A DNA stretch of 64,000 nucleotides from NCBI RefSeq assembly GCF_003790525.1, contig NZ_CP033635.1, one strand, 5' to 3'. Shown here one piece after another: positions 13,365 to 18,245 of this stretch (its first letter is position 1; the number at the start of each line of letters is the position of its first letter). The position numbers and the translations under genes are program-made. The notes beneath the pieces are model-generated. The model was not told the DNA's origin. It ran no database searches and saw only the letters and a program-made list of their open reading frames with translations. This stretch comes from Escherichia coli (GTDB taxonomy: Bacteria > Pseudomonadota > Gammaproteobacteria > Enterobacterales > Enterobacteriaceae).

Positions 13365-13517
13365 CCATTCTGGTTGTGTTATCAGACGCAGTAGCCGTTC
13401 TATCCGTCTGGAGGTGCCGGTAGCTGCCTATGTGGCAAGATTGCGTTGCATTTCGCTAGCGCGTCATCAGCGCCATGTTTCCTTAATATCCATCGCTGAC
13501 CCTCCCGGGTTCACCTG
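13365..13517 (-). other. Degenerate second group II intron copy, fragment C (region around IEP start, with internal deletion)
   Basis: Reverse complement aligns with intron 1 at about 15895..15955 and 16085..16150; IEP start retained as ATGCAACGCAATCTTGCCACATAG (stop after 7 codons). Confidence 0.45.
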
Positions 13518-14500
13518 TGTACGATCCGGAGACATGGTAGACAGGTGTTCGGGGACATGGTGAACACTTTTTAACATTCTTTGCCATGGTGATCGACTTA
13601 TTTTTCAGGTCGATCACCCCCACTTTTGTACTGTACCACCAGACTTCATACTGACCGTCTTCCTGCGTCTCCTTCAGCCCCAGGCGTTCATTTCTGAATG
13701 CCTTGCCCGCACTCAGACTGACACCTCTCAGACTCAGTTTACCCCTGATATCCACCTTCCTGACTACCACACCCTCGTCATACTCCGGCGGCTCTACATT
13801 GCTCCTGAACTGTCGCGCTGACGGCTGATACCGTGAGGCAGGAACAGCCATATCCAGAGCTTCATGCGGGCGTTCAAGATTATAGACTGTACGCCAGTGA
13901 TCGAAGGCGCGCTGCAACTCACCCGCATCTGTAAACCACTTACCCTGCAAAACTTCCGCCTTCAGACTGCGGTGAAAACGTTCCAGCTTGCCCTGCGTCT
14001 GTGGATGGTACGGGCTGGAGTGCCCCACCTTGATACCCTGACGCATCAGCCATAACTCCAGTGCCGTCCAGGTGCATCCTGTCCGGCAGTCCGTAGTGTT
14101 CAAATACGCTGACCAGCTGTTGCTGCACGGTCGTCCGTTGTTCATTGGCGCAGTGAGCCAGACACAGGGAAAAACGGGAATGATCATCCAGCAGCGTTAA
14201 CGGATGGCAGCGTCCACCGCCAAAGGGAAAGTGCCCCTTAAAATCCATCTGCCAGAGCTGGTTCGGCGTGTTCGAAGCGGCCCGTCGCCGGGGCTGCCGC
14301 AACCAGACCGGGCAGAAGGCCATTGCGGGCCATCAGGTTATGCACCGTGCTGAAGGCGGGCAGAACAAACTCAGAACGTAGTGACATGGTATCTCTCGCT
14401 TCCCTGGGCATAAGCGGCTCCATAAACGGGTTCTGATGCCTTAGTTGTAAGTATCAACCATGTCTCCGAACAAGTGTTTACTATGTCTCCGCATCGTACA
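13518..14500 (-). mobile_element. IS481-family element inserted into the degenerate intron copy, 6-bp target-site duplication CACCTG
   Basis: About 45-bp terminal inverted repeats beginning TGTACGAT(C/G)CGGAGACAT...; CACCTG at 13512..13517 and 14501..14506. Confidence 0.6.
13560..14423 (-). pseudogene. IS481-family transposase with at least two frameshifts
   Basis: Three ORF pieces in three frames (14238..14423, 13940..14323, 13483..14187) with integrase-core motifs ...SPYHPQTQGKLERFHRSLK... and ...YNLERPHEAL... Confidence 0.65.
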
Positions 14501-14645
14501 CACCTGTCTGAGGGAGGAGACTGCCCGTCGCACTCTTTGTCTTGATTGCCGCAAATTGGCAGAGGTCGGCAACGCGAGTGTGATAAGCGTTAATGTCCCA
14601 GTGTTTTGCATACATGTCAGAACACCTTTGACTGTAAGCGCATAC
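14501..14645 (-). other. Degenerate second group II intron copy, fragment B
   Basis: Reverse complement aligns with intron 1 domain I at about 15737..15890. Confidence 0.45.
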
Positions 14646-14707
14646 TGATCTTACCCACCAATAGTGGACACAGGACTAAGTGAGTAAACTCTTAACCAGG
14701 GTGACTC

Positions 14708-15007
14708 ATGACAAAACCAGTATCAATCAGCAAGAAGCCCCGTAAACAACATACGCCTGAATTTCGTAACGAAGCCCTGAAACTCGCTGAACGCATCGGT
14801 GTGGCCGCCACAGCCCGTGAACTCAGCCTGTATGAATCTCAGCTTTATGCCTGGCGCAGTAAACAGCAGCAACAAATGAGTTCGTCAGAGCGCGAAAGCG
14901 AACTGGCCGCTGAAAATGTCCGCCTTAAACGACAACTGGCGGAGCAGGCTGAGGAACTGGCCATCCTCCAAAAGGCCGCGACATACTTCGCGAAGCGCCT
15001 GAAATGA
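14708..15007 (+). CDS. IS3 OrfA
   Basis: [54 protein letters not shown]... Confidence 0.85.
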
Positions 15008-15406
15008 AGTATGTCTTCATCGAAAATCATCGGGCAGAGTTCAGCATCAAAGCGATGTGTCGTGTACTTCGGGTTGCCCGCAGCGGCTGGTATGTCTGGC
15101 TCAGGCGTCGTCACCAGATGAGCCTGCGCCAACAGTTTCGGCTCACCTGCGATGCCGCTGTCCATAAGGCATTCTTTGAGGCAAAGCAGCGATACGGTGC
15201 TCCCCGCCTTGCTGACGAACTGCCGGAGTTCAATATTAAAACCATTGCCGCCAGCCTGCGTCGTCAGGGGCTGCGGGCGAAAGCCAGCCGGAAGTTCAGC
15301 CCGGCCAGCTACCGTGCACATGGCCTGCCCGTATTGGAGAATCTGCTGGAGCAGGACTTCAGCGCCAGCGGCCCGAACCAGAAGTGGGTGGGTGACATCA
15401 CGTACT
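15004..15406 (+). pseudogene. IS3 orfB, 5' exon (ends ...QKWVGDITY)
   Basis: ORF 15004..15471; IS3 OrfB homology stops exactly at the intron 5' end. Confidence 0.8.
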
Positions 15407-16062
15407 GTGTGCCCGGAGTTCAGGGCGAGCATAGACGCTCAAATGAACCACGAGTCTGTCTGGAATATTGAACCGGTAACTCACGATGAGAAACCCAACA
15501 ATCCCACCGGGTGTGACGGTGGAGAACCTGAGCGGCAGTGACCTGCGGCATGCCCGCAGGGTGATGTAACCCGCTGACAACGGGGATTGAGGCGAGATCA
15601 CTAAGCCGAGATGATCCTCAAGGTTAAGTACTGAAAGGCTTAAGAATATGAACCCGTTAATCCGCCTCTGTGGGTTGAAAACGTCACCACGGCCTACGTG
15701 ATCTGACAGGCCGTGCAGGAGGAACTGGCAGTGATACGTAAGCACTGCCGGTCGAAGGTGTTTTGACATGTATGCGAAACTCCGGGGCAGCAGCGTCTAT
15801 CACGCTCGCGTTGCTGACTTCTGCCAACTTGCGGCAAGCAAGGATAAAGAGTGCGACGGGCAGCCTCCTCAGTATGTCTGAGTCCAGTCAGGCAAACCGG
15901 GGAAGGTCAGCGACGGATGTTAAGGGGGCATGGCTCCGATGACGCGCTGGCTGGCGGAGCTTCCGTAGTAGTCCGCGATGGGGAAAGCCCATTACATGGC
16001 GAAGGGAAGCAGTTTGAATGTGTCTGCGACGTAAATTAACTGACCTAACGAGGTGAAGACCT

Positions 16063-17586
16063 TTGATAATCAGCGAAATGCAACGCAAGCTTGCCACATG
16101 GGCAGCCACCGATCCGTCCCTACGGATTCAACGGCTGCTGCGTCTGATAACACAACCAGAATGGCTGGCTGAAGCGGCGCGGATCACGCTTTCATCAAAG
16201 GGGGCGAATACCCCCGGTGTTGATGGCGTGAACAAAACAATGCTACAGGCCAGACTGGCTGTTGAGCTGCAAATCCTCAGGGATGAATTACTCTCAGGCC
16301 ACTACCAGCCCTTGCCCGCCAGGCGGGTTTACATCCCTAAAAGCAATGGCAAACTGCGACCACTGGGTATCCCCGCGTTGCGGGATCGTATTGTTCAGCG
16401 GGCCATGCTGATGGCGATGGAGCCGATATGGGAGAGTGATTTTCATACGCTCTCATATGGCTTCCGGCCTGAGCGCAGTGTCCACCACTCGATCCGCACG
16501 GTGAAATTACAGCTCACCGACTGCGGTGAAACCCGGGGACGCTGGGTGATTGAAGGCGACCTGTCCAGTTACTTCGACACCGTACATCATCGACTGCTGA
16601 TGAAGGCTGTACGCCGCAGGATCAGTGACGCACGTTTCATGACTCTGCTGTGGAAAACCATCAAGGCGGGACATATCGATGTCGGTCTCTTTCGGGCGGC
16701 CAGTGAAGGTGTGCCACAGGGCGGTGTTATATCGCCGCTATTGTCGAACATCATGCTGAATGAGTTCGATCAATACCTGCATGAGCGCTACCTGAGCGGG
16801 AAAGCAAGAAAAGATCGGTGGTACTGGAATAACAGTATCCAACGGGGCCGAAGTACGGCGGTCAGAGAAAACTGGCAGTGGAAACCCGCGGTGGCGTACT
16901 GCCGCTATGCCGATGATTTTGTCCTCATCGTCAAAGGCACCAAAGCACAGGCGGAAGCCATCAGGGAGGAGTGTCGGGGTGTGCTCGAAGGCAGTCTGAA
17001 ACTCAGGCTGAACATGGATAAGACTAAAATCACCCATGTTAATGACGGCTTTATCTTTCTGGGGCACAGGATCATTCGCAAACGCAGTCGTTATGGCGAG
17101 ATGCAAGTGGTCTCAACGATCCCGCTGGAGAAAGCCAGAAACTTCGCCGCATCGCTGACAGCACTGTTATCAGGCAACTACAGTGAAAGCAAAGTCGATA
17201 TGGCTGAACAACTCAACCGAAAACTGAAAGGCTGGGCCATGTTCTATCAGTTCGTTGATTTTAAGGCCAAAGTCTTCAGTTATATCGACCGTGTCGTGTT
17301 CTAGAAGCTGGCTCACTGGCTGGCCCGCAAATACCGTACAAGTATCGCTTCCCTGATGAGGTGGTGGTGTAAATCACCGAAACCGGGTCAGAGCAAAACG
17401 TGGGTTTTATTTGGTAAAACCAATCACGGCAAGCTCAGCGGCGAAATACTGTACCGGTTGGTGGGGCAAGGCAAGAAGCTGTTCCGCTGGCGGCTACCCG
17501 AAGGTAATCCCTATCTGAGGACGGAAACCAGAAAGACGTATACATCGCGCTTTACAGAAGTGGCAATGGCGTTCGCCAGCGTTTAA
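16063..17586 (+). pseudogene. Group II intron-encoded reverse transcriptase/maturase, interrupted by in-frame TAG at about 17302..17304
   Basis: RT motifs including ...CRYADDFVLIV...; X-domain motif ...KLKGWAMFYQF...; ORF 16063..17304 and in-frame ORF 17356..17586 (...KLAHWLARKYR...) together end just before domain V. Confidence 0.75.
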
Positions 17587-17591
17587 ATGGA

Positions 17592-17626
17592 GAGCCGGAT
17601 GCGCTGAAAGGTGCATGTCCGGTTCG
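17592..17626 (+). ncRNA. Group II intron domain V (catalytic hairpin)
   Basis: GAGCCGGATGCGCTGAAAGGTGCATGTCCGGTTC: AGC triad, GAAA tetraloop, two-stem hairpin typical of domain V. Confidence 0.75.
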
Positions 17627-17676
17627 GGGAGGAGAGGCAGGGAAATAGTCCGACTACGCCCTGCCTCTTACTCTAC

Positions 17677-18128
17677 TGCGTACCGATGAGGGCTGGTTGT
17701 ATCTCACAGTAGTCATCGACCTGTGGTCACGCGCCGTCATTGGCTGGTCGATGTCACCGCGAATGACAGCACAACTGGCCTGTGATGCACGGCAAATGGC
17801 GTTGTGGCGGAGAAGACGCCCGGAAAGCGTCATTGCTCATACGGACCGTGGTGGTCAATACTGTTCAGGGGATTATCAGGCGCTGCTGAAGCGACACAAC
17901 CTGCGTGGCAGTATGAGTGCGAAAGGCTACTGTTATGACAATGCCTGTGTGGAAAGCTTCTTTCATTCGCTGAAGGTGGAATGTATCCACGGGGAACGCT
18001 TTAGCAGCCGGGAAATAATGCGGGCAACGGTGTTTAATTATATCGAGTGTGATTACAATCGCTGGCGTCGTCACAGTGCCTGTGGCGGTCTCAGCCCGGA
18101 ACAATTTGAAAACCATAATCTCGCTTAG
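17677..18128 (+). pseudogene. IS3 orfB, 3' exon
   Basis: ...[30 protein letters not shown]...HNLA; ORF track 17697..18128. Confidence 0.8.
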
Positions 18129-18158
18129 GGCCGTGTCCACATTACGTGGGTAGGATCA

Positions 18159-18245
18159 CTCCACCGTCACACCCGAAGGGATTGTTGGGTTTCTCATCGT
18201 TAGCTACCGATTCTATATTCCAGACAGACTCGAGGTTTATTTAAG
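18159..18245 (-). other. Degenerate second group II intron copy, fragment A (5' part of domain I)
   Basis: Reverse complement aligns (about 85 percent) with intron 1 positions about 15440..15524; directly abuts the IS3 right end. Confidence 0.5.

Follow-up and report, generated by a model that had tools for sequence, protein, structure and literature searches.

The window analysed here is a 64,000 nt stretch of Escherichia coli DNA (contig NZ_CP033635.1 of assembly GCF_003790525.1), one part of which, between positions 13219 and 19000, is made up of mobile elements that lie inside one another. At its core is a full-length copy of the group II intron E.c.I4, a name used in the Zimmerly database for a group II intron of E. 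coli and Shigella. This copy lies in an insertion sequence (IS) of the IS3 family, and the IS in turn lies between two pieces of another, decayed intron. A defective IS481-family element separates the second of these pieces from a third, and the first piece adjoins a degraded relative of ISEc31. Judged by its sequence relationships, the decayed intron is best read as belonging to an older, separate lineage of the E.c.I4 family that has also decayed. The locus as a whole is very probably an accumulation of dead mobile elements within a genomic island of E. coli, left by successive insertions and deletions.

The complete intron occupies 2270 nt of the plus strand (15407–17676), as delimited by Rfam (RF00029), Pfam and catalogue coordinates. 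It has the GUGYG start of a group II intron (here GTGTG), a domain V (Rfam Intron_gpII, RF00029, domain V/VI match at 17590–17676, 64 bits) and a reverse transcriptase/maturase protein. The protein is encoded by a reading frame of 507 codons (16063–17589) with the Pfam domains RVT_1 and GIIM, and the endonuclease domain is absent. The intron sits in sense orientation within orfB of the IS3-like element, immediately after the codons for W-V-G-D-I-T-Y, and the spliced exons of orfB read DITYLRTDEGW. This site, after GDITY in an IS3-like orfB, and the catalogue coordinates given below identify the copy as E.c.I4. The first-pass annotation of the window had described it as complete, which is true of its length and not of its reading frame. 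An in-frame TAG (17305–17307, codon 414) falls within the GIIM maturase domain of a frame that is otherwise open to its 507 codons, and the NCBI Prokaryotic Genome Annotation Pipeline (PGAP) tags the gene 'internal stop' in an identical genome. Because the TAG lies inside GIIM, the copy is probably not self-mobile; it looks complete at the RNA level and is probably not autonomous.

To find further intron sequence, window positions 15300–17800 were compared by BLAST with the whole 64 kb. Besides itself, the query has four matches, all on the minus strand and all in intron order, and they define three pieces of a second intron, numbered here by taking window 15407 as nt 1 of the complete copy. 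Piece A (18159–18245) is matched over 87 nt, running from 18245 to 18159 against window 15438–15524, which is nt 32–118 in the 5' part of domain I (89.7% identity, E 1e-27). Piece B (14507–14645) corresponds to nt 332 to about 476, and its BLAST core of 133 nt runs from 14645 to 14514 against 15738–15870 (nt 332–464; 82.0%, E 2e-31). Piece C (13364–13517) is matched in two parts, from 13517 to 13455 against 15889–15951 (nt 483–545; 63 nt, 81%, E 8e-11) and from 13457 to 13364 against 16072–16165 (nt 666–759; 94 nt, 87.2%, E 1e-27). The limits of pieces A and C were taken from BLAST and alignments. Nothing else of the intron is repeated elsewhere in the 64 kb, and nt 760–2270 have no second match there. 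The homology and collinearity of three such segments with the complete intron had been proposed in the first-pass annotation and are borne out by pairwise alignment, in which they match the 5' third of the intron in order, in the same orientation and at 81–90% identity. The third segment is homologous as proposed and carries an internal deletion of about 120 nt relative to the intron, with the start codon of the intron protein gone. Its end represents codons 4–34 of that protein, with a TGG codon turned into a TAG stop, and PGAP annotates 13365–13451 as 'reverse transcriptase, internal stop, incomplete'.

The 6-kb nest is present as a whole in 32 complete E. coli genomes, including SMS-3-5, from poultry, pigs, humans and the environment (99.8–100% identity among the 25 listed of the 32), and it recurs in two metagenome contigs at 99–100%. 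The general difficulty of assembling nested repeats is all that would speak for a collapsed or mis-joined repeat. Against it stand complete genomes from different laboratories and two independent metagenome contigs, and the BLAST matches, obtained in a search space of 64 kb with E values between 1e-10 and 1e-31, are equally hard to attribute to chance or low-complexity similarity; an explanation of either kind is exceedingly improbable. Parts of the locus have been catalogued before. In the survey of Leclercq and Cordaux (PLoS One 2012, PMC3522654), the E.c.I4 copy of SMS-3-5, whose reading frame is recorded as disrupted, is entered as E.c.I4-25 (NC_010498:3241200–3243470, plus strand, 98% to the reference; Table S3). 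A fragment of 132 bp, E.c.I4-tr2 (NC_010498 3240307–3240438, minus strand, 84%; Tables S2 and S3), is placed in the same strain-specific island (Table S2). Transferred through the BLAST offset of SMS-3-5, the two entries map to window 15407–17677 and 14514–14645, and the complete copy is thus E.c.I4-25 and piece B is E.c.I4-tr2. Pieces A and C are absent from the catalogue and below its 100-bp cut-off. All four E.c.I4 fragments listed in it are within large mobile elements, and E.c.I4 is reported to home into IS3-like transposases, ISEc31 among them, in sense orientation and at a fixed position. The split, nested structure is not described in PMC3522654, and the word 'nested' does not occur in its text.

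About 380 nt of the decayed intron remain, with internal gaps of 213, about 11 and about 120 nt relative to the complete copy. The first 31 nt or so, everything past nt ~759, domains II–VI and nearly all of the protein are missing. Homology begins only at nt ~32, and there is neither a GUGYG 5' boundary nor a defined exon–intron junction. In this region RF00029 matches only the complete copy, and the remnant has no domain V/VI of its own; of an intron-encoded reverse transcriptase/maturase it keeps codons 4–34 with their TAG stop. A permissive search with the Rfam families for domains I–IV gave no match on either intron copy. What is left is nevertheless collinear with domain I of a bona fide group II intron and aligns with six intact relatives. 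The remnant is therefore a relic of a group II intron and not a working member, and because it lacks a 5' end, a domain V and a reverse transcriptase, function is impossible.

The relationship of the remnant to intact introns was assessed over 380 aligned columns. The lineages compared came from Rahnella and Erwinia chromosomes, a Salmonella Newport IncFIB plasmid, a second Salmonella plasmid, one E. coli plasmid and one E. coli chromosomal fragment. The remnant agrees with the complete copy at 84.2% of these columns and with every intact lineage collected at 80–86%. Over the same columns, the chromosomal introns of Rahnella and Erwinia are 93–99% identical to the complete copy and the intact lineages differ mutually by 6–16%; the lineage of the complete copy maintains 94–99% identity even in Rahnella, Hafnia, Buttiauxella and Erwinia. 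The remnant had first been taken for a second copy of the same intron, which does not agree with an identity of 84% set against 94–99% within that lineage across genera. Under the published naming rule, E.c.I4 extends to a divergence of no more than 10% and anything beyond it takes a new name (PMC3522654). The remnant shares homology with E.c.I4 in domain I and at the start of the protein, but it is 14–20% divergent from every intact lineage found, and is therefore a relative and not E.c.I4 itself.

It could still be argued that the remnant is a copy of E.c.I4 proper, inserted at about the time of the complete copy's lineage, and that its 16% divergence is entirely neutral decay in place. Marks of decay are plain enough: at 32 columns that do not vary among six intact sequences the remnant alone is changed, while no intact lineage has more than 21 such private changes, it breaks 9 of 55 RNAalifold consensus pairs (0–6 in the others), and it carries a stop codon and internal deletions. 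In its derived states, however, piece B goes with the plasmid lineages of Salmonella and E. coli (L010, L011 and L009) and not with the complete copy, and the lineage of the complete copy keeps its 94–99% identity across genera. Since the intact lineages themselves differ by 6–16%, most of the distance of the remnant would be ordinary lineage divergence, and we regard decay in place as the whole explanation as improbable. A separate lineage of the E.c.I4 family is the better reading because the remnant stands at 80–86% from all intact lineages, compared with the 94–99% found within that of the complete copy.

No closer intact relative was found among 5,426 complete E. coli genomes, where the best full-coverage BLAST match is 83.3%, or among the 72,556 plasmids of PLSDB, where it is 83.5%; piece B alone reaches 89.5% on a Salmonella Newport plasmid in the latter. 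A conserved 22-mer searched in one genome per GTDB species gave five matches, all of the modern lineage, and a 19-mer specific to the remnant retrieved from the Joint Genome Institute (JGI) metagenomes only the same nest. Two Salmonella IncFIB plasmids carry full-length introns of the E.c.I4 family, 84–89% identical to E.c.I4 (L010, 3170–5412; L012, 3195–5430). The reading frames of both are fragmented, and the PLSDB gene tables, which are incomplete, have no entry at these positions. A fragment of an IS3-family transposase again precedes the intron in L011 and L009, so the preference for IS3-family hosts spans lineages.

Pieces B and C are separated by a defective IS481-family element of 983 bp on the minus strand (13518–14500), delimited by its reading frames, inverted repeats and identity. 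Its ends form imperfect inverted repeats of about 55 bp (43/55 matching), and the target duplication CACCTG is present on the left at 13512–13517 and on the right at 14501–14506. The inverted repeats, the short target duplication and the related DDE transposase place it in the IS481 family, as the first-pass annotation had it. The element is not intact: its transposase is frameshifted and split across three frames, and about 300 bp are missing from the interior. The nearest intact relative, 93.6% identical and about 300 bp longer, is a plasmid copy of 1285 bp whose annotation reads IS481 family transposase. The named relative is ISEc19 (yagA, prophage CP4-6 of K-12, IS481 family), with 80.8% DNA identity over 98% of the element, and like ISEc19 the window copy has terminal inverted repeats and a 6-bp target duplication. 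Unlike ISEc19 it is some 280–300 bp shorter, frameshifted and confined to the nest; copies of 99% identity or above are limited to the 32 nest-carrying genomes, one in each. The six intact intron relatives have a single CAGGTG at the target, with continuous sequence across it, and the element is a clean IS481-like transposition into the old intron. An empty site was found neither in E. coli, with a reconstructed junction of 257 nt as query, nor in metagenomes, with a 21-mer across the junction.

Between pieces A and B lies the IS3-like element (14646–18158, plus strand; 1243 bp plus the intron), delimited by inverted repeats, comparison with IS3A and PGAP. Its terminal inverted repeats are intact (TGATCTTACCCAC.../TGATCCTACCCAC...), and the termini read TGATCTTACCCAC... 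and ...GTGGGTAGGATCA. It had been called a full IS3 carrying the intron. It does carry the complete intron, but without it the element is only 80.8% identical to IS3A of K-12. IS3 itself would be recognized by near-identity, a criterion based on the isoform rule of ISfinder, and by a 3-bp target duplication, and the element has neither. With K-12 IS3 (IS3A, insE1/insF1) it shares orfA, orfB, the frameshift region, the TGATC...GATCA ends and the motif W-x-G-D-I-T-Y-L-R-T-D-E-G-W; it differs in its identity, in being interrupted by E.c.I4 and in the missing duplication. Its sequence makes it another member of the IS3 group, an IS3-family element and not IS3. A weak match to the ALIL pseudoknot (21 bits, E 0.024) lies on the plus strand at 14980–15080, in the overlap of orfA and orfB, and is consistent with the usual programmed-frameshift signal of the IS3 family.

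Both ends of the IS3-like element adjoin old-intron sequence. Its flanks read TAC and CTC, so that a target duplication is lacking, and exactly at the insertion point the old intron has lost 213 nt (nt 119–331). Because the duplication is missing and this much of the remnant is gone, the element is not a simple insertion, and it would have come to its place either by an insertion accompanied by a neighbouring deletion or through the recombination of two IS copies.

On its other side, piece A adjoins the outermost layer of the nest, a degraded ISEc31-like element of the IS3 family on the minus strand (18246–19000, upstream end approximate). It keeps the 5' part of the element, with orfA and the N-terminal third of orfB, contains several frameshifts and is annotated by PGAP as an IS3 family transposase pseudogene (18249–18880). 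Its DNA identity to ISEc31 is 77–78% and extends up to window 18249. At about this point orfB breaks off after ...LEAEQVW and intron-like sequence follows from about nt 32; at the matching place ISEc31 reads ...PEPDRVW-CGDITY-IW. An orfB broken at QVW beside the first segment had been noted before, and the break indeed lies about 17 nt, or five codons, ahead of the DITY site used by the complete intron. The junction therefore lacks some 17 nt of the upstream exon and the first 31 nt or so of the intron. Intron nt 16–25 agree at 9/10 positions with the outer orfB (AGGCCGAGCA), and this was considered as an upstream extension of the homology and rejected; as the ISEc31 homology runs past it to 18249, the match belongs to a deletion junction.

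The same damaged 5' junction, at 99% identity or more, recurs in 225 complete E. coli genomes, where plasmids as well as chromosomes carry it. In this form only 21–24 nt of intron are left before the C-terminal end of the ISEc31-like orfB (..YILNYYNSVRPHNY..) follows; in the loci L002 and L003, for example, positions 7800–7960 of each represent the junction at window 18225–18260. The neighbouring gene sodC is also present in some of these loci. The shorter derivative, much commoner than the nest with its 32 genomes, retains host sequence that is missing in the window and is without intron sequence that the window retains. Since each form keeps sequence that the other has lost, the two must share an ancestor that already had the damaged junction, and since the commoner deletion derivative has this junction too, the damage predates the nest.

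Beyond piece C is a fragment of another IS3-family orfB (13219–13357, minus strand, a PGAP pseudogene) whose orientation is that of the remnant. The fragment matches an IS3-family element beside ugd/his in strain 23CRST049 at 81.7% identity and starts about 30 codons past the DITY of that matching element. It was considered as the rest of the ISEc31-like host and rejected, since it matches ISEc31 neither as DNA nor as protein; the genuine 3' end of the ISEc31-like element occurs in loci of the L002/L003 type and nowhere in the window. The remnant thus lies between two different IS3-family hosts, a hint of old recombination between elements. Recombination of two old introns in different hosts, followed by a deletion of about 1.6 kb, would account for this neighbour, as would a plain deletion into a neighbouring relic.

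Taken further, the remnant might be a chimera of two old introns, one in an ISEc31-like host and the other in a host of the 23CRST049 ugd type, which recombined and were then trimmed by deletions. The co-oriented but dissimilar flanks and the whereabouts of the ISEc31-like 3' end would fit such a history, and a missing target duplication at the IS3-like element is what recombination of two IS copies should leave. The clean duplication around the IS481-like element, however, ties pieces B and C to one source copy. Pieces A and B are collinear and co-oriented across a gap of 213 nt, for which a single deletion is simpler, and a second old copy was found nowhere in the E. coli genomes and metagenomes searched. 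We therefore consider a chimera unlikely and prefer a single old intron.

The nest has four levels, with the ISEc31-like element outermost, then the old intron, the IS3-like element and E.c.I4. The first-pass annotation had recognized the nesting and counted it as three deep. It had also taken the nest as a record of the order of arrival, which applies from the outside inwards: the ISEc31-like element precedes the old intron, the old intron precedes the IS3-like element, and this precedes E.c.I4. The IS481-like element likewise follows the old intron, and the order does not extend to the IS3-like and IS481-like elements relative to each other. Divergence from the nearest relative is 22% for the ISEc31-like host, 14% for the old intron, 6% for the IS481-like element and 1–2% for E.c.I4, which agrees with an order from old outside to young inside. 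Deletions are found at three of the four boundaries of the remnant.

The proposed history would begin with the ISEc31-like element. An old intron of the E.c.I4 family may then have entered its orfB in sense orientation, at or near the W-x-G-D-I-T-Y site; orientation, a position within five codons of the site and the published host range point to retrohoming. The exon–intron junction would have lost about 17 and 31 nt, either by a later deletion or by incomplete reverse transcription at the time of insertion. An ISEc19-like element of the IS481 family entered domain I of the dead intron, as the duplicated CACCTG demonstrates, and then decayed. The IS3-like element would have arrived in domain I with the loss of 213 nt and no duplication, by insertion with deletion or by recombination between IS copies. 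Modern E.c.I4 retrohomed into the IS3-like orfB, as its exact position at DITY demonstrates, and its frame today carries a nonsense codon. The old intron also lost all sequence past nt ~759 and is joined there to the fragment of another IS3-family element.

Several points weigh against this account. Neither an uninterrupted B/C site nor an intact copy of the old lineage turned up in E. coli genomes, plasmids, GTDB species genomes or JGI metagenomes, and as no intermediate allele was found, the order of events is read from the anatomy of the locus. Both exon junctions of the old intron are gone, which makes its exact insertion site unrecoverable. The 5' and 3' neighbours are two different IS3-family elements, contrary to what one host and one intron would leave, and the base-pair comparison uses an RNAalifold consensus rather than a curated group II structure.

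The type of object, a group II intron that homes into insertion sequences and leaves fragments in islands, is already established. A parallel is RmInt1 in ISRm2011-2 of Sinorhizobium (PMC4496777, PMC4181065), which also lacks an endonuclease domain, homes into an insertion sequence and has old copies that persist as fragments in other mobile DNA. It differs from the present case in intron family, host element and bacterium, and the likeness is one of description only.

Other relics and genes lie in the surrounding island. A second nest at about 7000–10600, as annotated in an identical genome, is an IS66-family element (tnpB and tnpC pseudogenes) split by IS100 of the IS21 family, in which istA is frameshifted. 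An intact gene pair on the minus strand (11096–12951) encodes a PAPS-reductase-like protein of 408 aa and, overlapping it, a ParB-like 'IbrB-like' protein of 214 aa. The gene sodC lies at 20159–20683, and sitA/sitB are farther along the island. These genes, sodC, sitA/sitB and the PAPS-reductase/IbrB-like pair, are what islands of extraintestinal or avian E. coli typically carry. A full-length match to the Rfam family STnc490, an Hfq-binding small RNA, was obtained on the minus strand at 22584–22705 (134 bits). It adjoins a truncated IS200/IS605 tnpA (about 22338–22574, by PGAP annotation of an identical genome), which suggests that the match belongs to an IS200 remnant.

The inverted arms of the old intron lie directly outside the ends of the unit formed by the IS3-like element and E.c.I4. 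Read-through on the plus strand would carry RNA antisense to the intron, with a complementarity of 90% over 87 nt and of 82% over 133 nt, and the predicted arm duplexes have energies of -136 and -210 kcal/mol, compared with about -31 for shuffled sequences. One could imagine that such RNA pairs with domain I of E.c.I4, whether in cis or in trans, and that the locus so traps the intron RNA and prevents it from folding, splicing or moving. If true, this would parallel in bacteria the antisense silencing that derives from transposons. The resident E.c.I4 is already disabled, which weighs against the model, and we give it very little credence.

The locus is ordinary and non-functional, its main pieces were catalogued in 2012, and it matters little beyond bookkeeping. 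It does offer a clean illustration of how transposons become layered in an E. coli island, in which the catalogued 132-bp E.c.I4-tr2 is part of a tripartite remnant of about 380 nt and automatic annotation breaks the whole into seven unrelated-looking pseudogenes. For the intron family, the locus suggests that a conserved site in IS3-family transposase genes has been colonised at least two times by E.c.I4-family introns, once by the old lineage now seen as a relic and once by the modern one. Such a double colonisation fits the published picture of extinction and recolonisation for Enterobacterial group II introns.

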